Counted from the first letter of the stretch, positions 6,806 to 61,329 are shown. The stretch: DNA of 64,000 bases from Sulfuritalea sp. (GCF_017302275.1 NZ_JAFLDR010000016.1:22156-86155); one strand, 5' to 3'. Notes: generated from the sequence alone by a model not told the origin. Translations and numbers: made by a program.

Positions 6806-6852
6806 AAAAGTCGGCGCCCCACAGGGACTTCCTTCGGTCGCTGGCGGGGCGG
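6806..6852 (+). repeat. Dispersed motif, long form with 24-nt insert
   Basis: AAAAGTCGGCGC[CCCACAGGGACTTCCTTCGGTCGC]TGGCGGGGCGG, between convergent genes. Confidence 0.85.
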
Positions 6853-6876
6853 CGATCCACCTCCGAGCGATGCCGG

Positions 6877-7704
6877 TCACGCCGGCCGCGAACGACTGGC
6901 GAATTCGCCACCCACCCGGCGCTTCATGATTCGGGCGTAGAGCCCCGGCGCCAGCCGGGAAAGCCACCAGGCCATGCGCGAGGTGCTGTCGGGCAGCAGT
7001 AGCGCGCGGCCTTCCGCCACGGCCGAGAAAATGCGCCCGGCGATTTCCTCGGGCGAGGATTCGCCGCCGGTGGTGATGCGCGGACCGCTGACCGGCGCGC
7101 CGCTGCCGTCGGTGGCGGCGGCGCCGATGCCGGTGCGGATGAACGACGGGCAGACCACGGTGACGCCTACACCGGCGCCTTCCACTTCACTGCGCAGGCT
7201 GTCGAAAAAGCCATGCAGCGCATGCTTGCTGGCGGCATAACCGGTGCGGCCGGTCAGCGGCGCGAAGCCGGCGACGCTGGAGATGGCGACGACGAAGCCG
7301 CGGCGTGCGACGATGGATCCCAGCGCCGCGCGCGTCAGGTTCGCCGCGCCGAAGAAATTCACTTCCATGACGCGGCGGATCACCGCCGGATCGGTGTCCT
7401 GCAAGAGGCTGCGGGCGCTGATGCCGGCGTTGTTGATCAGGCCGTCGAGCGCGCCGAAATGCGCCAGCGTGGCGGCCACCGCCGAGACGCAGGCGGAGGA
7501 TTCGGTGATGTCGCCGGGGATGCCCAGGGCCTCTGCTCCGCCGGCGCGCAATTCGGAAACCAGGGCATCGAGTTTCCGCGCATCGAAATCCAGGGCGGCG
7601 ATGCGTGCGCCGGCGGCGGCATAAGTCCGGCACAGGGCGGCGCCAAGGCCGCCGGCGGCGCCGGTGATGAGAACGACCTTGCCCTTGAATTCGCGGCTAG
7701 TCAT
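6877..7704 (-). CDS. Short-chain dehydrogenase/reductase (classical SDR)
   Basis: TGAAGGLG, NNAGI, YAASK motifs. Confidence 0.92.
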   Translation of the reverse strand: MTSREFKGKVVLITGAAGGLGAALCRTYAAAGARIAALDFDARKLDALVSELRAGGAEALGIPGDITESSACVSAVAATLAHFGALDGLINNAGISARSLLQDTDPAVIRRVMEVNFFGAANLTRAALGSIVARRGFVVAISSVAGFAPLTGRTGYAASKHALHGFFDSLRSEVEGAGVGVTVVCPSFIRTGIGAAATDGSGAPVSGPRITTGGESSPEEIAGRIFSAVAEGRALLLPDSTSRMAWWLSRLAPGLYARIMKRRVGGEFASRSRPA

Positions 7705-9637: not shown

Positions 9638-11389
9638 TTAAGCCTTCGGTTCCTCGTGCATCTTCTTGAAATGTATCAAACCCGGCGCCCACATGTGCTT
9701 CACCGGATCGACATCGACGTGGATCACGGCGCAGCCGCCGGTCGCCAGCGCGCGTTGCAGCGCGGGTTTCAAAGCCGCCGGATCGGAGACGCGCTCGCCG
9801 TAGGCGCCCATGCTCTCGCCCAGCTTGTCGAACTTGATTTCGCCGAGGTCGGCCTTGATCGTTTCGTCGGGATCGAGGTGCTTGAAGATCATGGTCTTGA
9901 TCGGCCGCAGCATGAACTGCTGGTTCATCTTGACCATGCCCCACTGCTTGTCGGCAAGAACGATGTAGATCACCTGCGCCTTGTTGCGCACCGCCGTCTC
10001 GACTTCCTGCGAATGGAAGCCCATGGCGCCGTCGCCGATGATGCAGCACACCGGCTTGCCCGGCCGCGCCAGCGCGGCGGCCACGGCCTGCGAGGTGCCG
10101 GCGCCGAGCATGCCGAACTTGAAAGTGGAGACCACCGTGTTGGGCACCGTGACGCGGTGGTAGAACATGGCCCAGATCGTCGCGTTGCCGCCGTCGGCGA
10201 CCAGCACCGAATCCGCGGGGAATACTTCCTGGCAGACAGCGCCGATGTGCGCCGGATGCATCGGCACCGCCATGTCGGAAAGCGCCTTGTCCCAGCCGGC
10301 GCGATCCTCCTGCATGGTCTTCGCGTAGCCGGCGACGCGGGCGCGGCGGGCATCAAGCTTGATCTCGCCCTGGCGCTTCTCCAGTTCGTCGCCCAGGCTT
10401 TCGAGGAAGCGTTTGGCATCGGCCACCACACCGAGGTCGGCGGGCTTGTTCAGCCCGATGATGTCGGCATCGATGTCGACCTGTATGGTCTTCTGCTCGG
10501 ATGGATGGCGCCAGTAGGGCGGCTTGCCCCACCAGTCGGTCTCGCCGATGCGCGAACCGAGGATCAGCACCACGTCGGCGTCGTTGCGCACCTTGTGGTT
10601 GAGCTTGACGTGGGGCATGGTGATGGCCAGCGGCGAATCCTCGCTCAACATGCCACGCGCCGCCCAGCTCGTGGTCACCGGCGCGTGCAGCAGTTCGGCG
10701 ACGCGGCGCAGGGCGTCGTAGGCGTGGCAATGGATGATGCCGCTGCCGGCGTGGATCATCGGAGCGCCCGCCGCGATCAGCCAGTCGGCCGCCTGCTTCA
10801 CCTGTTCAAGAGTCGGCGCTGACGGCACGGCGTTGCGGTACTGGTGCGGCGCCCAGAACGCCACCTCGGCCTTGACCTTGCCGTTCATGATGGTTTCCGG
10901 CACGTCCAGATGCACCACGCCGGGCCGGCCTTCCCAGCTCTTGCGCAAGGCCTTGCGCATCAGTTCCGGCACCCGGTCGAAGGAGGACACGGCCGCGCTC
11001 CACTTGCCGATCTTGCCGATGACCCCGCTCTGGTCGAAGCACTGGTAGCTGCCGCCGCGATCGGGATACATGATGGTCGGCCGGCGCGCGCTGGTGATCG
11101 CCAGCACGCGGTTGCCGTCGGCCTGCTCGACCACCAGGCCGGGCAGCAGGTTGGCGACGCCGGGGCCGTTGCTGGCCATGCAGACGCCGAGCTTGCCGGT
11201 CAGCCGGGCATAGGTGCCGGCCATGTGCGCGGCGCAGGTTTCGTGGCGCGGCGTGACGATCTCGATGCCGAGCCGGTGCAGCGCCGAATAGAAACCGAAA
11301 TAGGTGCCGTCGATGATGCCGAAGACCTTCTCGACGCCTTCCTTCTGCAACATGCGGGCGAGGATTTCGCCGCCACTGATTTCAGCCAT
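9638..11389 (-). CDS. Thiamine pyrophosphate-binding enzyme (acetolactate synthase-like / acyl-CoA lyase-like)
   Basis: RHE catalytic Glu, ASNGPG, GDGAMG TPP motif; RBS GGAGG before ATG 11389. Confidence 0.88.
   Translation of the reverse strand: MAEISGGEILARMLQKEGVEKVFGIIDGTYFGFYSALHRLGIEIVTPRHETCAAHMAGTYARLTGKLGVCMASNGPGVANLLPGLVVEQADGNRVLAITSARRPTIMYPDRGGSYQCFDQSGVIGKIGKWSAAVSSFDRVPELMRKALRKSWEGRPGVVHLDVPETIMNGKVKAEVAFWAPHQYRNAVPSAPTLEQVKQAADWLIAAGAPMIHAGSGIIHCHAYDALRRVAELLHAPVTTSWAARGMLSEDSPLAITMPHVKLNHKVRNDADVVLILGSRIGETDWWGKPPYWRHPSEQKTIQVDIDADIIGLNKPADLGVVADAKRFLESLGDELEKRQGEIKLDARRARVAGYAKTMQEDRAGWDKALSDMAVPMHPAHIGAVCQEVFPADSVLVADGGNATIWAMFYHRVTVPNTVVSTFKFGMLGAGTSQAVAAALARPGKPVCCIIGDGAMGFHSQEVETAVRNKAQVIYIVLADKQWGMVKMNQQFMLRPIKTMIFKHLDPDETIKADLGEIKFDKLGESMGAYGERVSDPAALKPALQRALATGGCAVIHVDVDPVKHMWAPGLIHFKKMHEEPKA
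10808..10830 (+). repeat. Dispersed 23-bp motif, short form inside TPP enzyme CDS
   Basis: AAGAGTCGGCGCTGACGGCACGG; encodes VPSAPTL on the minus strand. Confidence 0.8.
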
Positions 11390-11512
11390 GATTGCCTCCT
11401 TGCAAAGAATTCTTGTCATCGCCCGCGAGCGACGCTTTTGCGCAAGATTAGTCGCTTGCCGCAAAACATCGCTTGTCGCAGAATGCCACCCACTTTGTCA
11501 TTTCACGACAGC

Positions 11513-12586
11513 ATGCGACGAACCGATCCCCAGCCCGAGCCCGACCCGGCCGCCGCGCCCGGCGTCGGCGCCGGCTATGCGCGCCGCCTGTGCGAACTGG
11601 TCGAGCGCTTCGGCCTGCCGCGTCAGGGGCTGCTGCGCCACGCCGGCGCCGATCTCGCCGGTTGGGATCCGGCGCAGGCGCGCATCCCGCTCCCGGCACT
11701 GCTCGCGCTGTTTCGTTCGGCGCTGGTCCTCACCGGCCGGCGCGACCTCGGCCTCGAATTCGGCCGCCACGCCCGGCCGGACACCTTCGAGGTACTCGGC
11801 TACGCGCTGATGACTTGCCGCAACCTCGGCGAGGCCATCAGCCTGGTACCCCGCTATCGCCACGTCGTTTTCGACGCCGGCTACAGCGAAACCCGACTTG
11901 CCCGCGAAGGCGATGCCCTCAAGTTCTCCTGGGTCATCCTGCCCGAGGCCAGCGAAGCCGGCCTGCCCTACAGCGACGTCCTGGCGGAATCCCTGATCGC
12001 CAGCTGGTATGGCCTCGGGCGCTGGATCGCCGGCGCCGATCTGCCCCTGCGCGAAGCACGGTTCCGCCATGCCGCGCCGGAAGACAGCCTGCCCTTCGCC
12101 AATTTTTTTGCCTGCCCCGTGCGCTTTGACGCTGGCGAGAACGCGCTGCTGTTCGCCGCCGAACTGCTGGAGCAACCGCTGGTCCAGGCCGATGCCGAAC
12201 TCAACCTGGCAATGTGCGACGAAGCGCGCCGTTTCATCGAGCGCCGCCACGGCGACACCGGCATCGCCGCCCAGGTCCGCCGGGTGCTGGCACCGCTGAT
12301 GCCGAAGTGCGAGGCGACCCTGGCGCACGTCGCCGGCGCCATGGGCATCACGCCGCGCACCCTGCAACGCCGTCTCGCCAGCGCCGACTGTTCGTTTCAG
12401 GGGCTGCTCGACGACACGCGCCGCGAACTGGCGCAGGTGTATCTGCGCGATGCCGCCTTGTCGGCTCTGGATGTCGCCCTGCTGCTGGGCTATGCCGAGC
12501 AAAGCTCGTTCACCCGCGCCTTCCGCCACTGGTTCGACACCACGCCGTCCGCTTGGCGTGCCCGCCACGCACCACCCTCGACCTGA
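11513..12586 (+). CDS. AraC family transcriptional regulator (arabinose-binding_2 type N-domain)
   Basis: C-terminal double HTH: AMGITPRTLQRRL, LLLGYAEQSSFTRAFRHWFDTTPSAWR; divergent from the TPP operon. Confidence 0.92.
   Translation: MRRTDPQPEPDPAAAPGVGAGYARRLCELVERFGLPRQGLLRHAGADLAGWDPAQARIPLPALLALFRSALVLTGRRDLGLEFGRHARPDTFEVLGYALMTCRNLGEAISLVPRYRHVVFDAGYSETRLAREGDALKFSWVILPEASEAGLPYSDVLAESLIASWYGLGRWIAGADLPLREARFRHAAPEDSLPFANFFACPVRFDAGENALLFAAELLEQPLVQADAELNLAMCDEARRFIERRHGDTGIAAQVRRVLAPLMPKCEATLAHVAGAMGITPRTLQRRLASADCSFQGLLDDTRRELAQVYLRDAALSALDVALLLGYAEQSSFTRAFRHWFDTTPSAWRARHAPPST
12370..12392 (-). repeat. Dispersed 23-bp motif, short form inside AraC CDS
   Basis: AACAGTCGGCGCTGGCGAGACGG (reverse strand); encodes RLASADC. 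Confidence 0.8.
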
Positions 12587-15928: not shown

Positions 15929-16103
15929 GGATAGAATCAGTCGTGGGCAGTGTGTTGAATTGTATGCGACAGCGTACCGGGAATGAAAACCCGGCGCCAT
16001 CCGTATATACCCCGATCCTCACTCGTTCAGCGCACCCGCGACGCGAATGCCCGTGATGCCATCGTTGCCGAAATGCCCCGCCAGATCCAGCCCCGCCAGC
16101 TCA

Positions 16104-16150
16104 CCGTGTCGCCAGCGACCGAAGGAAGCCCCTGCGGGGTGCCGACTCTC
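16104..16150 (-). repeat. Dispersed motif, long form with 24-nt insert
   Basis: GAGAGTCGGCAC[CCCGCAGGGGCTTCCTTCGGTCGC]TGGCGACACGG, abutting the selD stop codon. Confidence 0.85.
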
Positions 16151-18425
16151 AAGCCAGCAAGGAAATCGGCTCCAGCGCCCTGCCCTGCGCCAGGACACGG
16201 CCGATGCGGACGGCCTGCGGATACCCGGCGGCTCGCAGTGCCGCGAGGCAGGCCTCGGCGCGCTCCGCCGGCAGGCTGGCCAGCAGGCCGCCGGCAGTCT
16301 GCGGGTCGAACAGCAGCGGATAGCTGGCGTGGCCCAGGGCCTCTTCCTGGTTCTTCAGCGCGCGGCGCAGGCGCAGGTTGGCTGGCTGCAGCGAACTGAG
16401 GACACCCGCTGCGACGCATTCGGCGGCGCCGGCCAGCAGCGGCAGCGCGGCGAGGTCGAGTTCCGCATCGACTCCCGAAGGCTTGGTCATCTCGACCAAG
16501 TGGCCGAGCAGGCCGAAGCCAGTGAGGTCGGTGCAGGCCGTCGCGCCGTGGGCCAGCAGCACCGGCATCGCGGCGCGGTTCGACACCTGCATCGATTCCA
16601 GTGCGGCATCGATCCACCGGCCGCGCGCTTTCAGCAGCTTGTGCGCGGCGAACAGGGTGCCGGTGCCGATCGGTTTGGTCAGGATCAGCGCATCGCCGGG
16701 GCGCATGCCGCCCTTGGTCAGCACCCCGGCCAGGCGCTCGTCGATCAGGCCGTTGATGGCGAAGCCCAGCGCCAGTTCGCCGCCCTCCCCGGTGTGGCCG
16801 CCGACCAGCGCGCAGCCGGCCTCGTTGAGCACCGAGACCGCGCCCGCCATCATCTGGAACACGATGTCCTCGACCTTGGCTTCCAGCCCCGGGGGCACGG
16901 TGGCGATGGCGGTGGCCGACTGCGCCTCGGCGCCCATGGCGAAGATGTCGCCGAGGGCATGGTTGGCCGCGATGCGGCCGAAAGTCCAGGGGTCGTCGAT
17001 GAAGGCGCGGAAGAAATCGACCGTATGCACCATGGCCTTTCCCACCGGCACCTTCACCACGGCGGCGTCGTCCGGCGCGTGCAGGCCGATCAATACGTCG
17101 TCGCGTTCGATCGGCTGCACGCTGGCCAGGGCACGCGACAGCACGCTGGCGCCGACCTTGGCACCGCAACCGCCGCAGCGCATGGCGACCGCCGAGATGG
17201 CCTGCGACTGCTCCTCGGCCGCCAGCGGCACGTCGTCGCGATCGAACTGGCGCTCGGCTGCCATCGGCGTCAACTCGGTGAACTTGCGCATGAAGCGGCG
17301 GTCGATCCAGTCCTTCCAGCGCCAGATCCAGTCGCCGCGCGCGTAGAGCGCGCCGCGCGAGGCGACGGCGTGGCGGTCGCCGGTGCTGATCAGGGCCAGC
17401 CAGCGCAGTTGCGGTCGATAGCGCGCGAGTTCCTGGCGGGTCAGTGTGCGGCGCAGGTTTTCCGCCAGCGGGCGGCCCATGCGCACGGCGAAGACGCCAG
17501 CCTTTTCCAGCCGCTGACCGCGCATCGAAGCGCAATCGCCGGCGGCGAAGATCTGCGGATCGGTCTCGCTCTGCAGGAAATCATTGACGCGAATGAAACC
17601 CGACTCGTCCAGCGCCAGCCCGGTGTCGGCCAGCCAGCCGGCGCCGCCGGCCTGGGTGACCCAGACAATCTCGTCGGCTTCGAGCGTCTCGCCGGCCTGC
17701 GTTTGCAGGCGCCCGGCATCGACTCGCACCACTTCCGCGGCGCGGTGCGTCACCACGCCCCGTGTCGCCAGCACCGACTCGAAGGCGCGGCGCACCGAGG
17801 TGTTGTGAGTGGGCAGGATGGCCGCCTCGGCGGAAAACAGGTGGAAGCGCAGTTCGTCGGGATTGCGCCCGAGCGCGACGAGTTCGTTGCGCAGCCGGTA
17901 TTGCATCGCCAGCGTAAGCTCGACCCCCGCGGCGCCGGCGCCGACCACGGCGATGGTGGTCGTCCCGGCATGGGCGCGCACGCGCTCGAACAGTGCCAGC
18001 CAGCGTTCGTTGAAGCGGCGGATCGGCTTCACCGGCACCGCATGGTCGGCGGCGCCTGGCACCCGGTCGAGCCTGGGCGTCGAGCCGATGTTGATCGACA
18101 GCGCGTCGTAGGCGACGGGCGGTCGATTGCGGCAGATCACCTTGCGTTCGCGGCGGTCGATGCCTGTCACCTCGTCGCGATAGTAGCGCGCACCGGCGAA
18201 TTCGGCCAGGCGGCGCAGGTCGATGTGGACTTCGTCGAAGCCGTAATGCCCGGCGATGTAGCCCGGCAGCATGCCCGAATATGGCGTATCGGTATCGGTG
18301 CAGATCACCGTCAGGCGCACGCCGGGCAGCGGCTTCATGGCGAACATGTGCAGCACGCCGACATGGCTGTGGCCGCCGCCGATCAGGACGATGTCGCGCA
18401 AAACAGGTGATGCCTTGGCCTGCAT
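16149..18425 (-). CDS. selD: FAD-dependent pyridine nucleotide-disulfide oxidoreductase fused to selenide,water dikinase (Cys form)
   Basis: N-domain LIGGGHSH, YSGMLPG, FAAGDC; C-domain CGGCGAK, DDAAV, TVDFF, GGHT, TDLTGFGLLGHL, DPQTAGGLL. Confidence 0.93.
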   Translation of the reverse strand: MQAKASPVLRDIVLIGGGHSHVGVLHMFAMKPLPGVRLTVICTDTDTPYSGMLPGYIAGHYGFDEVHIDLRRLAEFAGARYYRDEVTGIDRRERKVICRNRPPVAYDALSINIGSTPRLDRVPGAADHAVPVKPIRRFNERWLALFERVRAHAGTTTIAVVGAGAAGVELTLAMQYRLRNELVALGRNPDELRFHLFSAEAAILPTHNTSVRRAFESVLATRGVVTHRAAEVVRVDAGRLQTQAGETLEADEIVWVTQAGGAGWLADTGLALDESGFIRVNDFLQSETDPQIFAAGDCASMRGQRLEKAGVFAVRMGRPLAENLRRTLTRQELARYRPQLRWLALISTGDRHAVASRGALYARGDWIWRWKDWIDRRFMRKFTELTPMAAERQFDRDDVPLAAEEQSQAISAVAMRCGGCGAKVGASVLSRALASVQPIERDDVLIGLHAPDDAAVVKVPVGKAMVHTVDFFRAFIDDPWTFGRIAANHALGDIFAMGAEAQSATAIATVPPGLEAKVEDIVFQMMAGAVSVLNEAGCALVGGHTGEGGELALGFAINGLIDERLAGVLTKGGMRPGDALILTKPIGTGTLFAAHKLLKARGRWIDAALESMQVSNRAAMPVLLAHGATACTDLTGFGLLGHLVEMTKPSGVDAELDLAALPLLAGAAECVAAGVLSSLQPANLRLRRALKNQEEALGHASYPLLFDPQTAGGLLASLPAERAEACLAALRAAGYPQAVRIGRVLAQGRALEPISLLA

Positions 18426-18603: not shown

Positions 18604-19437
18604 CTACCTCCGGATGTCGTTGAGGCGCCAGTCGTAGTCGAGGAACTCCAGCTTGTAGTCGCCATTGCGCACCCTTGCCTGCGCCTCGGGTGTGGCCGCG
18701 AGCTGCGCGGCGTGGCGGGCGAAGGTGGTCTTCAGCGAGTCATAGCCCTTGTGGCCCTTCTCGAAATCCTTGCCGTACCAGTCGAAGATCTTCGACACCT
18801 GCAGGCGGCCCGCGGCGGCATCGAAGCGATTGCGCGTGCCGTCGGCGAGGAAGCGTTTCATGCCGTCGTCGAGTTGGGCATCGAGCTTTTCCGGTGTGAA
18901 GGCGTCAGGCCGCAGCATCGGGCAACCGATCGAAGCGCAGACCACGCCGACGTGGATGCGCGGGTCGTCGAAGGCACCAGGCGCGCGGATGATGCCGTGC
19001 TCGATGTCGTCGAGATGTCGCTCCTGCCCCAGCAGGGTGAAGAACTTTTTCTTCCACGGCGACGAGAACACCGAGCCGAGGTCCTTGATCGATTCGATAT
19101 CCGGGTATTTGCTCAGGATCAGCTCGACGGTGAAAGCGTTGTAGGCATTGATCAGGAAGGCCAGGCGCTGGGCCTTGTTCCACTTGCCGTAGTCGGCTTC
19201 GCCGACCGCCGAGAGCGCGGCGAGGTAGCCCTTGAGCGCCGTGTGCTCGGCCTTGATCGCGGCGTAATCGACGGCGCTGGCATTGCCGCTGGCGAAAGTC
19301 TTGACGTGCTTCGCCAGCAGCGCGTTCCAGGCCGCGTGCGAGTGGTCGAAGCCTTGCGCGCGCGCCAGCGAGGCGCCGGCGAGAAGCATCACGGACAGCG
19401 CGATGGTAAACAGGTTTCGTGCGAGTTTCATGCTCAT
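18604..19437 (-). CDS. DUF547 domain exported protein
   Basis: Signal peptide; FDHSHAAW, AFLINAYNAFT, DPRIHVGVVCASIGCP. Confidence 0.9.
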   Translation of the reverse strand: MSMKLARNLFTIALSVMLLAGASLARAQGFDHSHAAWNALLAKHVKTFASGNASAVDYAAIKAEHTALKGYLAALSAVGEADYGKWNKAQRLAFLINAYNAFTVELILSKYPDIESIKDLGSVFSSPWKKKFFTLLGQERHLDDIEHGIIRAPGAFDDPRIHVGVVCASIGCPMLRPDAFTPEKLDAQLDDGMKRFLADGTRNRFDAAAGRLQVSKIFDWYGKDFEKGHKGYDSLKTTFARHAAQLAATPEAQARVRNGDYKLEFLDYDWRLNDIRR

Positions 19438-21584
19438 TCTCCCCGCCGCCAGGCATGGAAGCGCGCCACCCAGGCGAGCAGCCCTTCCGGCGCGTGCGCC
19501 TTTTTCCAGACGCCGGCGACGTACTTGTTGGCCTCGGCGAGCGTCGGGTAGATGTGGATGGTGCCGAGGATCTTGTTGAGGCCGATGCCGTGCTTCATGG
19601 CCAGCACGTACTCGGCGATGAGGTCACCGGCGTGCTCACCGACGATGGTCACGCCGAGGATGCGGTCCTTGCCCGGCACGGTCAGCACCTTGATGAAGCC
19701 GTGGGCCTCGCTGTCGGCGATGGCGCGGTCGAGGTCGTCGATATCGTAGCGGCTGACTTCGTAGGCGATTCCCTTCTCCTTGGCTTCGGTTTCGTTGAGG
19801 CCGACACGCGCCACCTCGGGCTCGGTGAAGGTGGCCCAGGGGATCACCGAGTAGTCGGTACGGAATTTCTTGAAGGGGTCGAACAGCGCGTTGACGGCGG
19901 CATACCAGGCCTGGTGCGCGGCGGTGTGGGTGAACTGGTAGGGCCCGGCGACGTCGCCGCAGGCGTAGATGTTGGGGTAGGTGGTCTGCAGGAATTCGTT
20001 GGTGTCGACGGTGCGCGTCGCCGCCACGCCGATCTCTTCCAGGCCGTAGCCCTTGAGGTTGGCGACGCGCCCCACCGCGACCAGCACGGCATCGAAGGGG
20101 ATGCGCACTTCCCTGCCTTCATGTTCGGCGATCAGCGTCTTCTCGCCGTTCTCGGTGGTGAAGCGCATCGCCTTGTGGTTGAGCAGCACATCGACGCCTT
20201 CCTCGCGGAAGCGCGCGGCGACGAGCTCGGAGACTTCCGGGTCTTCGCGGATCATCAGCCGCGGCAGCATCTCGACCTGGGTCACCCTGGCTCCGAAGCG
20301 GGCGAAGGATTGCGTCAGCTCGCAGCCGATCGGCCCGCCGCCCAGCACCACCAGGCGTTTGGGCAGTTCGCGCAGGTTCCAGACATTGTCCGAGGTCAGG
20401 TAGCCGACTTCCTCGATGCCGGGAATCGGCGGCACGAAGGGGCGTGCGCCGGCGGCGATGACGATGCTGCGCGTGCTGAGTTTCCCGGTGGCGCCGTTGT
20501 GGCGCACGAACTCGACTTCCCAGGGCGAAACGATTCTCGCGCTGCCTTCGATGACGTCCACGCCGAGCCCGGTGTAGCGTTCGACCGAGTCGTGCGGCTC
20601 GACGGTCTTGACCACGCGCTGCACGCGCTCCATTACCTCGCTGAATTGAAAGTCGGCGCTGGCGGTACGGCGAAATCCGAACTCCTCGGCGCGCGCGACA
20701 TGCGAGAGGAACTTCGCCGAGCGGATCAGCGCCTTCGAGGGCACGCAGCCGGTGTTGAGGCAGTCGCCGCCCAGCTTGTGCTTCTCGATCAGCGTCACCT
20801 TGGCCCTGACCGCCGCGGCGATGTAGGCGGTGACAAGACCGGCGCTGCCGCCGCCGATGACGACGACGTTGCGATCGAACCTGGACGGCTTGGTCCAGCG
20901 CGCATAGACCTTCTTTGCCTTGACGCCGTCGACGATCTTCTTCGCGATCAGCGGGAAGATGCCGAGCAGGGCGAAGGAGCCGATCAACGCAGGCGAGAGG
21001 ATGCCGCGCAGGCTGTCGATGCCGGCCAGTTGCGTGCCGGCGTTCACGTACACGATGGTGCCGGCGAACATGCCGACCTGGCTGACCCAGTAGAAGGTCC
21101 AGGTGCGCATCGGCGTCAGGCCCATCACCAGGTTGATCATGAAGAAGGGGAAGGCCGGCACCAGGCGGAGGGTGAACAGGTAGAAGCCGCCATCCTTCTC
21201 CACGCCGCGATCGATGGCCGCCAGCCGCGGGCCGAAGCGCGCCTTGACCCAGTCGCGCAACAGGAAGCGCGCGGCTAGGAAGGCCAGCGTCGCGCCCAGG
21301 CTGGAGGCGAAGGACACCAGCACCGTGCCCCAGAGCAGGCCGAATACTGCACCGCCGGCGAGCGTCATGATCGCCGCGCCGGGCAGCGACAGCGCAGTGA
21401 CGGCGACATACACGACGAAGAAGATCGCCGCCGTCAGCCAGGGATGGGCCTGGCGATAGGCATCCAGCGCCGCCTGCTGCGCCTTCAGCGCGTCGAGGCT
21501 GAAAAAGCGGCCGAGGTCGAGCGCGAAATACAGCACGATGAACGCGGCAACGGCGGCAAGGAAGGAGAGTTTGCGCAGTGACAT
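19434..21584 (-). CDS. VTT (SNARE_assoc/DedA) domain fused to class I pyridine nucleotide-disulfide oxidoreductase (MerA/LpdA-like)
   Basis: N-terminal ALSLPGA / LRLVPAFPF VTT motifs; GGGSAG, GGDCLNTGCVPSK redox CxxxxC, GGGPIGCE, IHIYPT. Confidence 0.9.
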   Translation of the reverse strand: MSLRKLSFLAAVAAFIVLYFALDLGRFFSLDALKAQQAALDAYRQAHPWLTAAIFFVVYVAVTALSLPGAAIMTLAGGAVFGLLWGTVLVSFASSLGATLAFLAARFLLRDWVKARFGPRLAAIDRGVEKDGGFYLFTLRLVPAFPFFMINLVMGLTPMRTWTFYWVSQVGMFAGTIVYVNAGTQLAGIDSLRGILSPALIGSFALLGIFPLIAKKIVDGVKAKKVYARWTKPSRFDRNVVVIGGGSAGLVTAYIAAAVRAKVTLIEKHKLGGDCLNTGCVPSKALIRSAKFLSHVARAEEFGFRRTASADFQFSEVMERVQRVVKTVEPHDSVERYTGLGVDVIEGSARIVSPWEVEFVRHNGATGKLSTRSIVIAAGARPFVPPIPGIEEVGYLTSDNVWNLRELPKRLVVLGGGPIGCELTQSFARFGARVTQVEMLPRLMIREDPEVSELVAARFREEGVDVLLNHKAMRFTTENGEKTLIAEHEGREVRIPFDAVLVAVGRVANLKGYGLEEIGVAATRTVDTNEFLQTTYPNIYACGDVAGPYQFTHTAAHQAWYAAVNALFDPFKKFRTDYSVIPWATFTEPEVARVGLNETEAKEKGIAYEVSRYDIDDLDRAIADSEAHGFIKVLTVPGKDRILGVTIVGEHAGDLIAEYVLAMKHGIGLNKILGTIHIYPTLAEANKYVAGVWKKAHAPEGLLAWVARFHAWRRGE
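20648..20670 (+). repeat. Dispersed 23-bp motif, short form inside VTT-reductase CDS
   Basis: GAAAGTCGGCGCTGGCGGTACGG; encodes RTASADF on the minus strand. Confidence 0.8.
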
Positions 21585-22747: not shown

Positions 22748-23529
22748 GCGTCGGTCCTCCTCGGGGTGGTGATGCCGGTGATCGCGCCGCAGCGGATCAG
22801 CAGGGCCAGCGTCGTCACCGGGTCGAAATCCGCATCCGCAGCCATCGACTCGGCGGTCGCCGCGGCAAAGGTGGCGGCCTGTTGCAGCAGGCCGATGAAA
22901 AGCGCCGTGCCGTGCCCGACGCGCCGGATTTCGACTTCCAGTCCGATGCGACAAAGCAGCGCCGACTCGGCCCGCGCCGGATCGACGGCAGCCAGCGCCA
23001 GCGCCGGCGACTCCGCCTGGTGCGCGGCCCACAGTGAAACCACGGCATGCTCCGACGGCAGCGCGAACAGCGCCGGATGCAGCGAAAGCAGCGAATCCGG
23101 CAGGCCTTCCGGCTCGGCCAGCACGGCGGCGATGCGTTCCGAGGTGACGGCGTCGACGTCGGCCGCGTGCCAGGACCTTACACGCAGGTATTCGAGGCGC
23201 GCGAGGTCGGCCAGGTAGGGCAGCCCGGCGGCCGGCGGAAAATTCCCGATGAAGCCGGGGAATCCGTCGCCATACAGCGCCAGCACCGGCGAGCGCGGCG
23301 GCTGTGCGCGCACGAACTCGCGCGCCATGGCACGGAAGAAGTCCTCGCCGACCATCGCCTGCGTCACCGGGAAACTGTCCGCCAGCGCATCGACCAGGCC
23401 GACGATGACATTGTTGCGATACACCGCGAAGCGCTTGTCCGGCGCCGACCCGTTCCAGGTCGTCAGGCCAGGCGGGCACGCCGCAGCGGGCGCCAGCAGG
23501 GCTTCAGCAAATACGGCCGGGCCGCTCAC
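22744..23529 (-). CDS. DUF2063 RiPP-recognition partner (BufC/HvfC-like)
   Basis: [36 protein letters not shown]; GTGA overlap with the DUF692 gene. Confidence 0.88.
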
Positions 23530-24419
23530 GCCGCGACCCCGCGCGCGGCAGGAAGCAGCCGCTCCAGGATGCGTTCCGCTTGGCGCGCCTCGGCCAGCAG
23601 CACCGGCAGCGCCGGTATGTCGTTGTCGCGCTCGATCAGGGTCGGCAGCGGCCCGGTCAGGTCCAGGGCATGGCAATACAGCGCCCACACGACTTCGGCC
23701 ACCGGCGCGCCATGGCTGTCGATCAAGAGCGGCGCACCGGCGGCATCGGTGTCCTCGGCAAAGCCGGCGAGGTGGATCTGCGCCACCGCAGCTAGCGGCA
23801 GGGCGCCGATGTAGTCGCGCGCATTGCGGCCATGGTTGGTGCAGGAAATATGGACATTGTTCACATCGAGCAGCAGGCCGCAGCCGCTGCGGCGCACCAC
23901 CTCGCCGATGAAATCCGTTTCGGCCAGCGTCGACGCGGCGAATTCGACATAGGTGGCGGGGTTTTCCAGCAGCATGTGGCGCTTGAGGCGATCCTGGACG
24001 CGGCCGATGTGCGCGCAGACGCGATCCAGCGTGGCGGCGTCGTAGGCCACCGGCAGCAGGTCGCTGTAGAAGTTGCCGCCATGGCTGGACCAGGCCAGGT
24101 GCTCGGAAAAGGATTCGGGCTGGTAGCGATCGAGCAAGGCCGCGAGTCGTTCGAGGTGGGCCTCGTCAAGCGGCCCCTCGCCACCGATCGAAAGCCCGAC
24201 GCCGTGGATCGACAACGGATAGCGCTCGCGGATGCGCGTCAGGTAATGGTGGAAGGGGCCGCCGTCCACCATGTAGTTCTCGGCATGGATTTCAAAGAAG
24301 CCGATGTCCGGCAACGTGTCGAGGATGTCGCGGAAGTGCTCGGGCTTGAGCCCGATCCCCGCCCTTGCGGGCAGGGATCGGTGCTTGCGCGCCGGCAAAC
24401 GGCTCGTTGCGGACCGCAC
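23526..24419 (-). CDS. DUF692 multinuclear non-heme iron oxidative enzyme (MNIO, BufB-like)
   Basis: [52 protein letters not shown]; exact start uncertain. Confidence 0.93.
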
Positions 24420-24442
24420 GGCATGCGTCCCGAGGCAACCGG

Positions 24443-24757
24443 TCAGGCCTTCTTTTCCTTGAACTCCGCCAGTTGCCCGTTGCCGGTCGGCGAGGTCTTG
24501 GACATGGTCTTCTCGCAAGTACCCTTGGGTACCATCGACCAGGCATTGCCCTGATAGTCGGTCTTCGAGGTTCCGGCGCAGGTGGTGCCGGCGCCCGCCT
24601 TGCAGTCGTTCTTGCCCTTCAATGCCACGCCGTAGCACTTTTCGGTCTCCGCCTTCATGGCGCCGCCATGCGAAGCGGCAATGGCGGGCGCGGCGGCGAT
24701 GCCCATGGCGGCACCGAAGGCAAGCGCGAGGGAAGCGGCGGAAAGGGTTTTGTTCAT
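24443..24757 (-). CDS. DUF2282 bufferin-type RiPP precursor (BufA1-like)
   Basis: Signal peptide, then [24 protein letters not shown]...W..VPKGTCEK (4 Cys); RBS AAGGAG. Confidence 0.9.
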
Positions 24758-24985: not shown

Positions 24986-25008
24986 GAAAGTCGGCGCTGG
25001 CAATACGG
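24986..25008 (+). repeat. Dispersed 23-bp motif, short form
   Basis: GAAAGTCGGCGCTGGCAATACGG, intergenic. Confidence 0.8.
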
Positions 25009-27386: not shown

Positions 27387-28042
27387 GAGATCAAAGGATA
27401 GGAAATTCAAGCCACATGTGGCAGTACCTTCCACCCTGGTGCATACGTCATTTTCGCCGACGCGTAAACTTTGCGACAGAACCGCACCGTACGCCCACGA
27501 TCAATCCGAAGCAATAGCTGACCTGCTTGAACCCAGAACTACACTATGACAGAAGCGATATTCGTTGTGCGAAGCAGCATGCACGGCCGAACGGGTACTC
27601 TGGCGCATTGAGCGGAAAGCACCGCAATGCAGCATTCCGGCATCAAATGTTTATATGGAGATGGCACCGGAGTTTAATTCAGGAGTGGCCCGTCAAAACG
27701 AACTCCGCGACCTGGAAACCCATATCTGGAGAGCCATTGGAGGCGATGAATGTGGTGTCGATTTGAGCGACGGGCTAACGAATTCAGCACCGCCGATTCG
27801 ATGACCGGTTCCGATTAATTGAGCCAAACGAGTGACCAATGGAGAAACGGCGCCACCAGCTGGTCCTTGCCGACTGTACTCGGCGGGACTTCGAAGCTGA
27901 ATGACCGCTCGCGCTGCATTGCTTACTTCTCGACGCTACGCCCCGCCCGTCGGCGAGGTCCGCTAATGCCGCTTCCGCATAAGCACCCACGACTCCGCTT
28001 CAACCCCACCAACCCGCAAGTCATCGACGCACCGCCGCCCTC

Positions 28043-28089
28043 AATAGTCGGCGCCCCACAGGGACTTCCTTCGGTCGCTGGCGACACGG
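28043..28089 (+). repeat. Dispersed motif, long form with 24-nt insert
   Basis: AATAGTCGGCGC[CCCACAGGGACTTCCTTCGGTCGC]TGGCGACACGG, intergenic. Confidence 0.88.
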
Positions 28090-28291
28090 CGCTATTCGCC
28101 CTGTTTCGGCAGGATCAAGTATGAGTGCGGCCGCTACTTGCCCGCCCTGCGGCAGGACGTGGTTGCAAATTCCGCAGCGCCGGATTCGCCGCCAGCAGCC
28201 ACGCCCACCCACGAACGCCCCCCGTAGAACTACTTATTGCATCGCAGCAAGCAAGCGCTATGATGTTCATGTTTGCTTTTGGAGCACCCCC

Positions 28292-39958: not shown

Positions 39959-40056
39959 GGGAAACAAGCCGGGAAAAGGGGGAGCGCGATTATAGGCGCC
40001 GACTCCCGCCTCCGCCCGGAGAAGGCATACGCGCTGTTATAGAATTCGGGCCTTGC

Positions 40057-40132
40057 GCCCTTGTAGCTCAGTGGATAGAGCGACCGCCTCCTAAGCGGTA
40101 GGTCTCAGGTTCGATTCCTGACTTGGGCGCCA
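40057..40132 (+). tRNA. tRNA-Arg(CCT)
   Basis: 76 nt cloverleaf: TAGCTCAG D-arm, ACCGC/GCGGT anticodon stem with loop CT-CCT-AA, TCAGG-TTCGATT-CCTGA T-arm, encoded CCA; two U-U mismatches in the acceptor stem. Confidence 0.93.
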
Positions 40133-49555: not shown

Positions 49556-51178
49556 CTAAACGGGTTTGATCGTCGATTCGTCGATGCTGGCGTCGAACAG
49601 GTCCACCACCTCCCGAACGAAGGGGTCCTTTTCGATCGAGGCCACGGCCTTTTCCTGTCGTTCGCGCTGGGCGTTGCGGCTGCGTTCAGCCGGGGTTTCG
49701 GCCGCCGGTTCGGCAACGTCGATTTCCAGCCGCAGCGGGCGGCCGAAGTGGTTCTGCAATTCGCTTTGCAGCTTGTCCTGCTGCGCCTTGCCCAGCAGGT
49801 GCTTGTGCAGTGGCGCCAGACGGAGGCGAACCGAGGCATCACCGCGTTCGGCAAGCTCGCAGTGCTGGGCCAGTTGCCTTGCCATGCCGGTCAGCGATAG
49901 CTGCGCCACCAGGGCGTGCCAGTCGTTCTCGCCCGCAACCGGCGTGGCGGCGGGCGGCGTCGCTGGCACGCCTTGCCGTTGGCCTGCGGCTGCCGCGGGA
50001 TCGGGAGTCGGCGCTGGCGGTACGGCGGCTTTCGCCGGCGCGACTGGCACAGGCGTCGATTGACGCGGCGGCGCGGACGCGGCAACCGCAGCCGCGCGCT
50101 CCGGACGGAAGGCATGCAGGCGGAGCAGGCTCATGGCGAAACCGGCGTATTCGTCGGGCGCCAGACCAAGCTCATCGCGACCATGGACCGCGACCTGATA
50201 GGCCAGTTGCAGGTATTCGGCATCGAGGGCGCGAGCATAGGGAGTCAGGCGCTCACGCTCGGCGTCGTCCAGCAGCGCTTGCGGGGCGAACTGCGCCAGC
50301 GCGATGCGATGAAACAAGGTCGCCAGTTCCTGGAGGCCGCCGTCGAAGGACAGGCTGCGCGCATCCATCAGCCTGGCGACGTCGAGCATTGCCGACACAT
50401 CCTGCGCCACGAGCGCATCGAGCAGTGCGAACAGATGCTCGTCACCGACGGTGCCGAGCATCGCGCGCACCCCTTCGTCCTCGATCCTGCCCGCACCGTG
50501 GGCGATGGCCTGGTCGAGCAGCGACAGGGCATCGCGCATGCTTCCGGCCGCGCCTTTGGCCAGGTGGCGCAGGGCCGCGACTTCGAACGCCACGCCTTCC
50601 GCTTCGAGAACCCGCGACAGATGGTCGACAATCTGGGTTTGCGGCATCTGCTTCAGGTTGAACTGCAGGCAGCGCGAAAGAACCGTGACCGGAATCTTCT
50701 GCGGGTCGGTGGTGGCGAGGACGAACTTGACATGCTCCGGCGGTTCTTCCAGGGTCTTCAGCATCGCGTTGAAAGCGTGGCCGGAAAGTTGGTGCACCTC
50801 GTCAATGACATAGACCTTGAAGCGCCCGATGGTCGGCGCGTAGGTGGCGCGTTCGAGCAATTGCGTCATGTCATCCACCCCGCGGTTCGACGCCGCATCG
50901 AGTTCGATGTAATCGACGAAGCGACCGCTGTCGATTGCCGCACAGGCGGAACACTTGCCACATGGCGTGGAACTGACGCCGGTCTCGCAGTTCAGGGCCT
51001 TGGCCATGATGCGCGCCAGCGTGGTCTTGCCGACGCCCCGTGTCCCGGTGAAAAGGTAGGCGTGGTGGAGGCGGTTTTGGTCCAGCGCATGAGTCAGCGC
51101 CCGTACCACGTGCTCCTGGCCAACCAGTGTGGCGAAGGACTTGGGGCGCCACTTGCGGGCGAGGACCTGATAACTCAT
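49556..51178 (-). CDS. dnaX: DNA polymerase III subunit gamma/tau
   Basis: [42 protein letters not shown]. Confidence 0.97.
50003..50025 (+). repeat. Dispersed 23-bp motif, short form inside dnaX linker
   Basis: GGGAGTCGGCGCTGGCGGTACGG; encodes VPPAPTP on the minus strand. Confidence 0.8.
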
Positions 51179-51923: not shown

Positions 51924-52029
51924 GGTGCGGCGAGCCTGACCCCCGGCACTTGCAGAAAACGGCTGTGGCTGCTTCCTTCCGGACCTGACCAGGTTCACCG
52001 CCCCGCAATGCGGGGAGACCCGCCGCACC
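51924..52029 (-). ncRNA. ffs: Signal recognition particle RNA (4.5S)
   Basis: Conserved GGTCAGGTCCGGAAGGAAGCAGCC core; terminal GGTGCGGCG/CGCCGCACC pairing; near dnaX. Confidence 0.93.
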
Positions 52030-58915: not shown

Positions 58916-58944
58916 CGCCGTGCCCGGGGAGGTTCAGGCGCGGA

Positions 58945-61329
58945 TTATAGGGTCGGCTGCGAATGCCAGTAGCGACGCCGGAGTTCGCGCTCGTGGCGGA
59001 AGACGACACCGGTTCCGTCAATCGCGATGCCGATCGCACCGTGGGCGTCGGTACGATGCAGGCGTGCGCCGCTTTGCACATAGCGCTCCAGCACATCCTG
59101 CTTCGGGTGGCCGAAGCGGTTGCGATAGCCGACTGGAAAGACCACGTCACGCGCTGCGACGGCGGCAACGAACTCGGGAGTCGATGAAGTGCGACTGCCG
59201 TGGTGCGGCGCCGTCATCACCGACGCCGCCAGCCGGACGCGATTCGTAGCCAGCAGTGCCTGTTCCGAGACCGCCTCGATGTCCGAGGTGAGCAGCATCG
59301 ATCGACCGCCCGCCGTCACCCGCAGCACGCAGCTGAGGTCGTTGCTCTTGCGCGACAGGGTTTGCGCGCCGGGATGCAGCACTTCAAAGCGCACCCCGTC
59401 CCACTCCCATGCATCCCCATCACGACAGGTTTCATGCGCCACCGGCAGCGCCGACAGCGCGTGCTCGAACGGCAGCGAACTCTTGAGCACGGTCACCGGC
59501 AGTGCGGCGATCACGGAGGCGGCGCCGCCCTCGTGGTCCTTGTCGCCATGGCTGATGACCATCGCGTCGAGCCGGCGCACGCCTTGCGCGCGCAGGTAGG
59601 GCGCGATGATGCGGTTGCCGCTGTCGGCATCGGCCGAGTAGGCCGGCCCGGCGTCGAACAGCAGGTCGTGGGTGGCGGTCTGGACATGGATCGCCAACCC
59701 CTGGCCGACGTCGAGCACGGTGACCGCGGCCGCACCGGCCACGGGCCTCGGTGGCAGCAGGGTCAGCAGCGGCAGGAAAGTCAGCAGGCCGAGCCAGCGC
59801 GCCGCGACACCGCGCGGCAGCAGCAGCCAGAGGCTGCCGGCAAGCGCCAGCAGCACGGACCATGGCGGCGGCGCCGCCTGTTGCCAGACAGCGAGCGGCA
59901 GGGCAGCCAGCCAGTCGATGAACAGCATCAGCCAGGCGGTGAGCAGCTGTGCCAACGACAACAGCGGATCGAGCAAGGGCAGGCTGCCCAGCAGGGCCAG
60001 GGGCGTAATGACCAGGCTCACCAATGGAATCGCCAGCGCATTGGCCAGCGGCGAGACCAGCGAAAACTGCTGGAACAGGGCCAGCAGCGCCGGCAGCATC
60101 CCCAGCGTGACGGCCCATTGCGCGCGCCCCCACTCGAGCAGCCAATGTGCAGGTCCCAGGCGCCCGCCGCCGATGTGGAACAGCAGCGCCACCGCGGCGA
60201 AGGAAAGCCAGAAACCGGCCGCCAGCACCGCCAGTGGATCGAGCAGCAGCACCAGCATCAAGGCCAGAGCCAACACCCTCGATGCGGCCACTTCACGGGC
60301 CACCAGGTGCGCCAGCGCGACCACGCCGAGCATGTACAAGGTGCGCTGCGCCGGCACCGCGAAACCCGCCAGCAGGCAATACAGGATCGCCGCCAACAGA
60401 CCGCCCAGCGCTGCCGCATGCTGCGCGGGAAGGCGCAGCGGCAAGCGCGTCGAGCGTCGCCACAGGCAGTTGGTCAACGCATAGGCCAGCGCCGCGAGCA
60501 TGGTCACGTGCAACCCGGAAATGCTCATGAGATGGGTGATTCCGGTGCGGGCGAACGTCTGCCACAAGCCGGCGTCGATCGAGTGCTGGTCGCCGATCGC
60601 GAGCGCGATCAGGATGCCGGCATACGGCGCCTCGGGCAGCGCACTGCGAAACCCGTCACGTATCGCTTCGCGCAGCATCTCGATCGCATACCCGGGCCGC
60701 CATACGCGGGCCTGCAGGCGTTCCGCCGAGCGCGGACGGACGTAACCCGTGGCGCGGATACCGCGCTCGAACAGCCATGCCTCGTAGTCGAATCCGTGCG
60801 GGTTGAGGTTGCCGTGCGGCCGCTTCAGGCGCACCGTGAAGCGCCAGCGCTCGCCGGCCCGCACCGGAATCCGCGGCGTCGCGTCATCGTCCACGTCGTC
60901 GCGACCGCGATACCATGCCAGCGCAACATGCGGCGGCACGCCAGTTGGCGACTGCTCGACATCGAATTCGTAGCGCACGCCGCACTCCAGTTCCTGAGGC
61001 AGTCCGGCGACCACGCCGACCAATTCGATGTCGCGCCCTTCCAGGTCCGGCGCGAGTTCATTTGCCAGGCGCAAGTGGGCATATCCGCACGCCCAGGCGA
61101 AACCGAGGCAGGCGGCCGCTCCGGCAAGCATCGCCAGGCCGACCGGACGCCGTGGCGCCAGCGACCGAAGGAAGTCACCTTGGGGTGCCGACTCATCGAC
61201 GTGCCGACCAAACAAAAAGAGAATCGGCGCAGCAGCGACAAGGCCCGCAAGCCAGCCGACTCCGGGCAATGCGGGTTGCTGCTGCAGCAGCCAGATGCCG
61301 AAGGCAAATGCCAGGACAAAAATGCGCAT
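58945..61329 (-). CDS. comEC: DNA internalization competence protein ComEC/Rec2
   Basis: DUF4131/OB region, HLMSISGLHV, VPAQR, GFWLSF, LDVGQG, SHGDKDHEGG, N..SCVL, LLTSDIE, PHHGS. Confidence 0.95.
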   Translation of the reverse strand: MRIFVLAFAFGIWLLQQQPALPGVGWLAGLVAAAPILFLFGRHVDESAPQGDFLRSLAPRRPVGLAMLAGAAACLGFAWACGYAHLRLANELAPDLEGRDIELVGVVAGLPQELECGVRYEFDVEQSPTGVPPHVALAWYRGRDDVDDDATPRIPVRAGERWRFTVRLKRPHGNLNPHGFDYEAWLFERGIRATGYVRPRSAERLQARVWRPGYAIEMLREAIRDGFRSALPEAPYAGILIALAIGDQHSIDAGLWQTFARTGITHLMSISGLHVTMLAALAYALTNCLWRRSTRLPLRLPAQHAAALGGLLAAILYCLLAGFAVPAQRTLYMLGVVALAHLVAREVAASRVLALALMLVLLLDPLAVLAAGFWLSFAAVALLFHIGGGRLGPAHWLLEWGRAQWAVTLGMLPALLALFQQFSLVSPLANALAIPLVSLVITPLALLGSLPLLDPLLSLAQLLTAWLMLFIDWLAALPLAVWQQAAPPPWSVLLALAGSLWLLLPRGVAARWLGLLTFLPLLTLLPPRPVAGAAAVTVLDVGQGLAIHVQTATHDLLFDAGPAYSADADSGNRIIAPYLRAQGVRRLDAMVISHGDKDHEGGAASVIAALPVTVLKSSLPFEHALSALPVAHETCRDGDAWEWDGVRFEVLHPGAQTLSRKSNDLSCVLRVTAGGRSMLLTSDIEAVSEQALLATNRVRLAASVMTAPHHGSRTSSTPEFVAAVAARDVVFPVGYRNRFGHPKQDVLERYVQSGARLHRTDAHGAIGIAIDGTGVVFRHERELRRRYWHSQPTL
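61150..61196 (-). repeat. Dispersed motif, long form with 24-nt insert, in frame inside comEC
   Basis: ATGAGTCGGCAC[CCCAAGGTGACTTCCTTCGGTCGC]TGGCGCCACGG; encodes ESAPQGDFLRSLAPR between two TM segments. Confidence 0.85.

Follow-up and report, generated by a model that had tools for sequence, protein, structure and literature searches.

Repetitive extragenic palindromes (REPs) and the REP doublets that form hairpins (REPINs), with their REP-associated tyrosine transposase (RAYT, also called TnpA-REP, a Y1 HUH enzyme), are among the closest described parallels to a 24-nt unit that occurs in a stretch of DNA from Sulfuritalea sp. (GCF_017302275.1 NZ_JAFLDR010000016.1:22156-86155). The whole stretch of 64,000 nt, referred to as the window, has 65% G+C and comes from a Rhodocyclales bacterium of activated sludge that resembles Sulfuritalea. 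Four copies of a short dispersed motif in the window are filled by the unit, and the same unit sits in unrelated repeats of other phyla. It is a discrete entity with a fixed sequence and fixed boundaries, which has been inserted as a block into existing DNA several independent times, in unrelated hosts, and gained at orthologous sites. We put at roughly one in two the probability that it is a non-autonomous "nano-element" mobilized in trans, most likely by a single-strand HUH/Y1-type transposase.

Closest Described Systems

Like the unit, REPs and REPINs are short, non-coding, high-copy, non-autonomous and persistent in their lineages, and they sometimes lie inside genes (PMC3733652). The unit itself resides inside REPs of Rhodanobacter, Pseudoxanthomonas and Anaerolineae. 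It differs from them in that it is not a palindrome, has no GTAG/CGTC head, is nested within REPs and also occurs in hosts that form no hairpin; moreover, its sequence is the same across phyla, whereas REPs vary from genus to genus, and no RAYT lies next to it in the loci examined, which are stretches of 8-22 kb around its copies. A survey of REPs of the GTAG/CGTC type reports that loop variants of different length coexist in REP families and that REPs are sometimes intragenic, with no mention of the present unit (PMC3733652).

The ends of insertion sequences (IS) of the IS200/IS605 group resemble REPs (PMC3333891). These elements and their derivatives lacking an open reading frame (palindrome-associated transposable elements, PATEs) share with the unit the absence of terminal inverted repeats and of a target duplication, a precise difference between present and absent states, small sub-terminal hairpins, a short flank on one side (a weak preference in the unit) and a link to single-stranded or hairpin DNA. 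The unit differs in its length of 24 nt, its stems of 3-4 bp and its loose flank CWGS, and no TnpA is found in the same loci. A third parallel concerns the target: IS1397 and ISKpn1 insert into the loop of palindromic units (PUs), and ISPpu9 and ISPpu10 of the IS110 family target REPs (PMC1525189, PMC8450116). The apex or center of REP hairpins is thus a target that they have in common with the unit, but they are full insertion sequences of 1-2 kb with a transposase of their own. The ends TG...CA of IS3 elements have no counterpart in the 24 nt, and we know of no 24-nt scar left by REP-targeting insertion sequences.

Rickettsia palindromic elements (RPEs) are palindromic, about 100-150 nt long and found mainly in Rickettsia. 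They resemble the unit as in-frame gene inserts that add a peptide without destroying the protein, but the unit is 24 nt long, non-palindromic and present in several phyla; the analogy drawn in the initial annotation of the window therefore extends to in-frame tolerance and not to structure. Yeast mitochondria contain mobile GC clusters and "byp" elements, and the bacterial interspersed mosaic elements (BIMEs) of E. coli contain extra-PU motifs (L, S, r and others); these too are very short GC-rich modules, either present or absent within other sequences, genes among them, or mosaic components of composite repeats. They come from another domain of life or another taxon and differ in sequence; byp elements are bypassed in translation whereas the unit is translated, and BIME motifs are enterobacterial and situated between REPs. 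Taken together, the unit stands closest to REPs/REPINs and to non-autonomous elements of the IS200/IS605 type; in the targets that it occupies it comes near REP-targeting insertion sequences (PMC1525189). It lacks the features that define REPs, miniature inverted-repeat transposable elements (MITEs) and RPEs. It can be regarded as one of the small non-autonomous repeats, with a considerable chance of being something new.

A Dispersed Motif With Filled and Empty Copies

The pattern CCCNNNGNNRCTTCCTTCGGTCGC matches the window exactly four times and is absent from 100 dinucleotide-preserving shuffles, which bears out the annotation of four motif copies with the same extra 24 nt. The insert had been placed always between GTCGGCRC and TGGCG, and indeed all four copies (Table 1) are flanked by AGTCGGCRC and TGGCG, with four matches to the gapped host pattern against 0.06 expected. 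The 3' 13 nt are invariant among them, and the flanks and the 5' part are variable. With up to two mismatches allowed, the 13-mer TTCCTTCGGTCGC has no convincing copy in the window outside the host motif. Half-sites of a longer master element were also considered, and the window contains none. When the two halves of the motif are searched for at all spacings in the window and related loci, only the "empty" and "empty + 24 nt" spacings are enriched, in a loose fuzzy scan that also draws chance matches at many other spacings.

The four copies lie in different settings. Copy 1 is located between the convergent genes 5900-6779 (+) and 6877-7704 (-, an SDR gene); the same site is filled in a relative whose SDR is 96% identical (L199), and in another (L201) the motif is empty but in the opposite orientation and in broken synteny, which precludes a valid comparison. 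The host motif of copy 2 begins 1 nt past the TGA stop of gene 16149-18425 (-), which encodes Pyr_redox_2 and AIRS (SelD-like) domains (Pfam). Copy 3 is found about 200 nt upstream of a MaoC/phosphate acetyltransferase gene with a probable start at 28289. Copy 4 is inside comEC, where its eight codons are translated in frame, as annotated, into PQGDFLRS, residues 49-56 of the protein.

The empty motif is 20 nt long, with the consensus AAGAGTCGGCGCTGGCG-NNN-CGGCG, and has ten good copies and one weak copy in the window against 0.12 expected. The word AGTCGGCGCTGGCG-NNN-CGGCG recurs about once per 4 kb in both orientations, within conserved genes and between genes, and is kept at orthologous sites; it behaves more like a candidate word of the uptake-sequence type than like a REP hairpin. 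The orientation of the unit relative to this asymmetric Rhodocyclales word is fixed (42 vs 0).

The Same Unit in Unrelated Repeats

A scan of one genome per species, covering 185,579 species, finds the unit in the form YCCC-NNN-GGGACTTCCTTCGGTCG in more than 114 genome stretches among the matches listed, a lower bound, against about 9 chance matches by rough estimate. Many of these loci derive from metagenome-assembled genomes with taxonomy as deposited; their flanking repeats and base composition are typical of the lineage. In Sulfuritalea, other Rhodocyclales and Methyloversatilis the host is the word AGTCGGCGC^TGGCGACACGG (AGTCGGCGC^TGGCG, with ^ marking the insertion point), in Rhodanobacter and Dyella the REP hairpin CTCCCCCTGC..GCAGGGGGAG, and in Pseudoxanthomonas and other Lysobacteraceae the hairpin CCCCTCTCCC..GGGAGAGGGG, with a similar hairpin in Solimonas. 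Anaerolineae provide two hosts, a GTAG-type REP (GACGAGGC..GCCTCGTCCCTAC) and the CCCCTCTCCG hairpin. The unit also occurs in repeats of Usitatibacteraceae, in GC-rich islands of the AT-rich Brachyspira pilosicoli, and in Kingella and Conchiformibius; among the matches listed, Elusimicrobia, Planctomycetes and one deltaproteobacterium have single copies. The earlier statement that the insert was not seen outside the motif thus holds for the window but not elsewhere, where REP hairpins, an uptake sequence and genomes of several phyla harbor it, and the specificity for one motif is lost once flanks are tabulated across species, since the unit lies in several unrelated repeat families. Filled REPs are a minority in the Rhodanobacter and Pseudoxanthomonas loci, where most are empty and have loops of 2-5 nt; in Rhodanobacter the unit has both orientations relative to the REP. 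Many copies sit within REP hairpins located downstream of genes.

The 12-nt DNA uptake sequence of Kingella and Conchiformibius, AGGCAGCCTGAA, is interrupted by the unit at TT^CAGG, and the site then reads TT^CAGGCTGCCT. The three loci concerned (L070, L039 and L109) contain 4-14 copies of this uptake sequence, and deleting the 24 nt in silico restores a perfect AGGCAGCCTGAA at both sites of L070 and in L039, and one with a single mismatch in L109. One such site lies in a Kingella acyl-CoA dehydrogenase gene and yields the in-frame product QP[ATEGSPFG]EN; ATEGSPFG is present in six close relatives (five homologs at 91-96%), and some 54 more distant orthologs are without exactly these eight residues. 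Peptides are therefore added to proteins, as had been proposed for ComEC, in at least one independent case. With the unit resident in an uptake sequence in Kingella, the host motif of the Rhodocyclales becomes a candidate uptake sequence as well.

Two Caballeronia megaplasmids carry the unit inside a frameshifted transposase pseudogene of the IS630 family (L118 3001-3026, sp. SBC2 pSBC2-3; likewise SBC1), and a unit-bearing IS630 copy could serve as a vehicle between genomes. An origin from plasmids was considered and set aside, as these megaplasmids are the only plasmid instances and the copies lie within the pseudogene. A phage origin was rejected on a single match in 2.9 million viral contigs.

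A shorter relative of 23 nt, ACCTGAAGGACTCCCTGCGGTCG, occurs in the 3' tails of Rhodanobacter REPs and in Brachyspira (Table 1), and the GC-rich islands of Brachyspira contain tandem, diverged modules.

Filled and Empty Alleles at Orthologous Sites

Two of the four window sites permit a comparison of orthologous alleles. In ComEC, the motif-encoded (E/K)SA(L/P)A is found at the same position in most of 120 orthologs (74-91% identity), and the eight-residue insert, PQGDFLRS or PHRDFLRS, is restricted to the window protein (ESAPQGDFLRSLA) and ortholog P0002 (ESAPHRDFLRSLA). At the DNA level, comEC of the window, or of the related locus L116, differs from that of locus L115 by exactly 24 nt at this site. 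A neighbor-joining tree of the rest of the protein pairs the filled window sequence with the empty P0001 and groups the filled P0002 with the empty P0003 and P0004, and all outgroups are empty; by parsimony, this topology would require at least two events and an empty ancestor.

The second site, past the stop codon of gene 16149-18425, was compared across 80 orthologous metagenome loci. It is filled only in the window and in L082, at 90% nucleotide identity. L123 and L126-L130 (82-85% amino-acid identity) have an empty motif, L138 (83%) has a partly degenerate one, and in more distant orthologs the motif is decayed or missing. Because orthologs have an empty motif at the same place and only the closest relatives of the window are filled, the 24 nt entered pre-existing copies of the motif, and parsimony makes the empty state ancestral at both sites. 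The initial annotation had pictured a site-specific element that inserts or excises; its discrete insertion and its empty and filled orthologous states are found, at these two sites and in the REPs described below, whereas the unit is not specific to the motif and parsimony gives gains at both window sites.

The reverse polarity, in which the 44-nt form is original and repeated deletions between the direct repeats TCGGCGC and TCGGTCGC produced the 20-nt empty motif, is highly improbable. Near-repeats do flank the 24 nt in the Rhodocyclales motif, and decayed copies with small deletions exist (L059 is an example), but the dozens of empty alleles against two filled ones at each of the two sites would call for many independent and exact 24-nt deletions, and the same 24 nt are present or absent in hosts that lack these direct repeats. 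Slippage between the actual repeats, furthermore, removes 23 nt and breaks the comEC frame.

Outside the Rhodocyclales, a REP of Pseudoxanthomonas sp. F11 is filled and the orthologous REP of P. mexicana is empty, an unambiguous 24-nt difference (TCCCACGGGGACTTCCTTCGGTCG), and six orthologous REPs differ in presence or absence of the unit among Rhodanobacter species whose flanks are 64-86% identical. Exact 24-nt differences between orthologous sites are thereby documented in four host families. The unit was also sought in 885 kb of related betaproteobacterial loci that had not been selected for it, which contain 18 empty motifs and no real copy of the unit; the unit is therefore confined to certain lineages.

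Two further features of comEC stand beside these comparisons. In L115 an insertion sequence (DDE_Tnp_1) lies just upstream of comEC, and the window is without it. The N-terminal loop of ComEC, residues ~40-60 (window 61150-61210), is a hotspot of insertions: orthologs P0011, P0045, P0067, P0072, P0091, P0094, P0098, P0101 and P0118 have other inserts at or beside the motif, among them 22 residues in P0101 and P0118, sequences of the type ..ARSACLGFR.., and an inverted copy of the host word (ELCEAVSP).

Ends, Flanks and Folding of the Unit

In the register fixed by Pseudoxanthomonas the unit reads Y-CCC-NNN-GGG-ACTTCCTTCGGTCG, and the same ends, within 1 nt, recur in at least five host families. 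A pyrimidine precedes CCC in 117 of 128 copies among the matches listed. The majority NNN differs by lineage: ACA in Rhodocyclales, AAA in Rhodanobacter and ACG in Lysobacteraceae. The unit is non-coding; its 24 nt are free of stop codons in all six frames, which allows copies in coding repeats to be tolerated as eight extra residues.

The ends YCCC... and ...GGTCG are not reverse complements, so the terminal inverted repeats of a MITE are absent, and no host bases are removed at insertion. In the window the bases before the insert are CAC in two copies and CGC in the other two, with an alignment ambiguity of 1-3 nt, and at the unambiguous Pseudoxanthomonas junction (CCCCTCTC^T...G^CCGG) no base is duplicated; the short target duplication of CGC first proposed for the window does not survive these comparisons. 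The end tetranucleotides GTAG and CGTC, which mark REPs, are missing from the consensus YCCCNNNGGGACTTCCTTCGGTCG on either strand; the GTAG near the Anaerolineae copies belongs to the host REP. Sub-terminal hairpins can be drawn as YCCC/GGGR and GACT/GGTC. In the large host families the unit is followed by C[AT]G[GC], which accounts for 6 of 20 flank clusters compared with a background of 10% (p ~0.01, among the matches listed), with CAGG in Rhodanobacter and Kingella, CTGG in Sulfuritalea, and CAGC in Solimonas and Usitatibacteraceae. On average, the flanks of copies pair better than random flanks (-15.6 vs -12.2 kcal/mol); targeting of the hairpin apex as a general rule was nevertheless discarded, as many copies, those of the window included, lie outside real hairpins.

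Relative to genes, 18 copies are in the sense and 24 in the antisense orientation by a crude gene call. This lack of strand bias places the constraint on the DNA and not on a transcript, and it bears on a further explanation, namely that the unit is no selfish element but a functional module, such as a protein-binding site or a modifier of REP hairpins acting as terminators or stabilizers, which has been recruited repeatedly and kept by selection. Selection would account for the invariance of the 3' 13 nt in the window copies amid variable surroundings, for the persistence of filled sites between diverged species, and for the abundance of copies in REP hairpins downstream of genes. A module of this sort should, however, have an orientation relative to transcription, and its patchy phyletic distribution, with no copy in the unselected betaproteobacterial loci, and its presence inside coding sequences and a pseudogene are hard to explain by function. 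Nor is there an RNA family to support it, with no Rfam match at the copies, either at the gathering score (window and 19 loci) or at E values up to 10, and no significant folds bar one; we regard this explanation as doubtful. RNA structure was discarded as the basis of the unit, since folds of the filled and empty forms on either strand are not significant bar one copy. Resemblances to domain IV of the signal recognition particle (SRP) RNA, to P4 of RNase P RNA and to the tRNA-Lys3 primer-binding site have no Rfam support and were dropped as coincidence. No tRNA or tmRNA lies at the copies; ARAGORN finds only the tRNA-Arg at 40057.

Possible Mobilization in trans

A nano-element of this kind would land in the short repeats that are abundant in each genome: the Rhodocyclales word, the loop of REP hairpins or its vicinity in Xanthomonadales and Chloroflexi, and the uptake sequence of Kingella and Conchiformibius. 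Insertion would usually take place directly 5' of C-W-G-(G/C), catalyzed by an enzyme encoded elsewhere in the genome that acts in trans and recognizes the unit; the most likely agent would be a transposase of the single-strand-DNA HUH/Y1 type, akin to RAYT and the IS200/IS605 enzymes, and copies that fall into coding repeats would persist as eight added residues. Recognition of the unit itself is suggested because its ends are constant across hosts that share no homology. An HUH/Y1 mode fits best because there is no duplication and there are no inverted repeats, because the hairpins are sub-terminal and the conserved flank is one-sided, and because of the link to REPs and single-stranded hairpin sites. 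From these features we infer the enzyme, a single-stranded intermediate and any excision.

Several observations weigh against mobilization by such an enzyme. No transposase, integrase, reverse transcriptase or HUH enzyme, and specifically no RAYT/Y1 transposase, is encoded by the ~40 window genes scanned with Pfam, which are ordinary chromosomal genes, and the gene calls of L115 and L116, to which the rest of the window aligns, have no such enzymes in that part either, in keeping with the annotated absence of a cognate transposase or recombinase from the window. The co-occurring enzyme gene that the initial annotation had proposed to look for does not emerge from an all-vs-all comparison of open reading frames in 115 loci either, which finds no protein family common to the neighborhoods of the unit in different taxa. 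A length of 24 nt is well below that of the smallest IS200/IS605 derivatives (roughly 100 nt or more). The stems of 3-4 bp do not amount to the stable hairpin of a REP, and folding is more stable than in shuffled sequence for just one of the four filled copies (z = -2.9; -0.8 to +0.8 for the rest). The preference for sites 5' of CWG(G/C) is weak, being partly shaped by the C that the search pattern fixes, and many copies have other flanks. In the fetched loci the 3' 14 nt and the following C were likewise set by the search pattern, so that conservation there is ascertained and not measured; this bias does not affect the window copies, L116 or the Kingella proteins. Many filled sites are common to species whose flanks are only 78-88% identical, which implies slow turnover. 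No recent event has been caught, and the directions of change rest on parsimony. Finally, the flanks of comEC in L115 are 97-100% identical to the window, and the first ~1 kb of comEC is only ~80-85% identical (window 60400-61350 vs L115 9972-11000); the 24-nt difference at this site lies in a recombinant tract and may reflect an imported allele instead of an event in situ.

Such a tract fits an alternative in which no dedicated enzyme exists: after one illegitimate entry, the unit would spread through the repeat arms, either by template switching at stalled forks (copy-choice) or by gene conversion of short tracts, and would move between species by recombination or transformation. The failure to find an enzyme accords with this alternative, as do the dominant NNN variant of each lineage and the fixed orientation to the Rhodocyclales word. 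An inverted REP doublet of Rhodanobacter (L055 ~3080-3200) adds to these points: L055 and L071 have the unit on one arm and L096 has it on the opposite arm, which looks like an arm-to-arm switch within the palindrome and is what palindrome conversion predicts. Against it, the ends of the unit are identical in host repeats without shared homology, copies exist at non-repeat coding sites and in the IS630 pseudogene, and the Rhodocyclales arms offer just 9-13 nt of homology. In Brachyspira, unselected drift would erode a unit of 62% G+C in a genome of 28% G+C, and yet the unit survives there. Enzyme-free spread is accordingly judged rather unlikely, although more credible than a selected functional module.

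The nano-element reading also has a stronger form, which we hold tentatively and below even odds: the unit would be smaller than any mobile DNA element known, with defined ends, and would be written into single-stranded sites by a horizontally transferred HUH-type transposase or by a template-directed "writer". This would explain why unrelated repeats of Proteobacteria, Chloroflexi and Spirochaetes contain the same 24 nt, and why proteins have repeatedly gained eight residues. If the unit itself is what is mobilized, the lower size limit of mobile DNA elements has to be revised downward, and an enzyme is implied that recognizes a very compact sequence and inserts a defined 24-mer without duplication, of interest for genome evolution and possibly for DNA-insertion tools. 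REP hairpins and uptake sequences have a parasite or passenger in common across phyla, which is direct evidence of horizontal traffic in modules smaller than a repeat. The unit also explains recurrent eight-residue indels in alignments (PxGDFLRS, HRDFLRS and ATEGSPxG) and spurious open reading frames in GC-rich genomes.

A shared neighbor gene, in the manner of a REPtron, was considered and discarded, since the families that the 115 loci have in common are all generic (response regulators, ABC transporters and LysR, for example). An inverted pair of copies in L013 flanks mrdA and mreCD, with no transposase.

Metagenome Assemblies and Other Features

The 45-nt filled motif at copy 3 is a repeat in sludge metagenomes, with ~13-fold depth and many unrelated contigs ending at 28046 and 28091; in runs X1, X7, X8 and X12, which cover window 27778-28411, contigs break inside the unit at 28062/28063. 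The population data for runs containing the window are assembled contigs, and they report on repeat status and not on mixtures of empty and filled alleles. The unit thus causes contig breaks in assemblies of activated-sludge metagenomes. A literature search with the 13-14-nt words of the unit and with the encoded peptides returned no match among the papers searched.

Table 1. Filled and empty host motifs of the window, with copies of the unit in uptake sequences and of the shorter module in other loci (L numbers).
Feature	Position	Strand	Context
24-nt unit, copy 1 (CCCACAGGGACTTCCTTCGGTCGC)	6818-6841	+	equivalent register 6817-6840; within host motif 6809-6852
24-nt unit, copy 2 (CCCGCAGGGGCTTCCTTCGGTCGC)	16115-16138	-	within host motif 16103-16147
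24-nt unit, copy 3 (CCCACAGGGACTTCCTTCGGTCGC)	28055-28078	+	within host motif 28046-28090
24-nt unit, copy 4 (CCCAAGGTGACTTCCTTCGGTCGC)	61161-61184	-	within host motif 61149-61193, inside comEC
comEC, carrier of copy 4	58945-61329	-	homologs: Pfam DUF4131, Competence, Lactamase_B
Empty host motif (AGTCGGCGCTGGCGGGACGG)	1988-2007	+	
Empty host motif	10811-10830	+	antisense within TPP-enzyme gene 9638-11464 (-)
Empty host motif	12370-12389	-	
Empty host motif	17760-17779	-	sense, within gene 16149-18425 (-)
Empty host motif	20651-20670	+	antisense within Pyr_redox gene 19434-21584 (-)
Empty host motif	24989-25008	+	intergenic
Empty host motif, perfect consensus (AGTCGGCGCTGGCGACACGG)	34377-34396	-	past stop codon of EamA gene 34407-35327 (-)
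Empty host motif	38278-38297	-	sense, within ABC-F gene 38033-39967 (-)
Empty host motif	39619-39638	-	sense, within ABC-F gene 38033-39967 (-)
Empty host motif	50006-50025	+	antisense within dnaX 49556-51178 (-)
Unit in uptake sequence	L070 2463-2486		
Unit in uptake sequence	L070 ~2803-2826		
Unit in uptake sequence	L039 3240-3263		
Unit in uptake sequence	L109 1032-1055		
Second module, ACCTGAAGGACTCCCTGCGGTCG type	L064 ~6914		
Second module, ACCTGAAGGACTCCCTGCGGTCG type	L113 ~770		
Second module, ACCTGAAGGACTCCCTGCGGTCG type	L025		
Second module, ACCTGAAGGACTCCCTGCGGTCG type	L102 1009		
Second module, ACCTGAAGGACTCCCTGCGGTCG type	L015 7112-7150		

The window also contains a small SRP RNA (51926-52024, -), a tRNA-Arg(CCT) (40057-40132, +), the methylase gene hsdM of a type I restriction-modification system (192-1910, -), and a gene for a MbnB/TglH/ChrH-family enzyme that modifies ribosomally synthesized and post-translationally modified peptides (RiPPs; 23526-24638, -).

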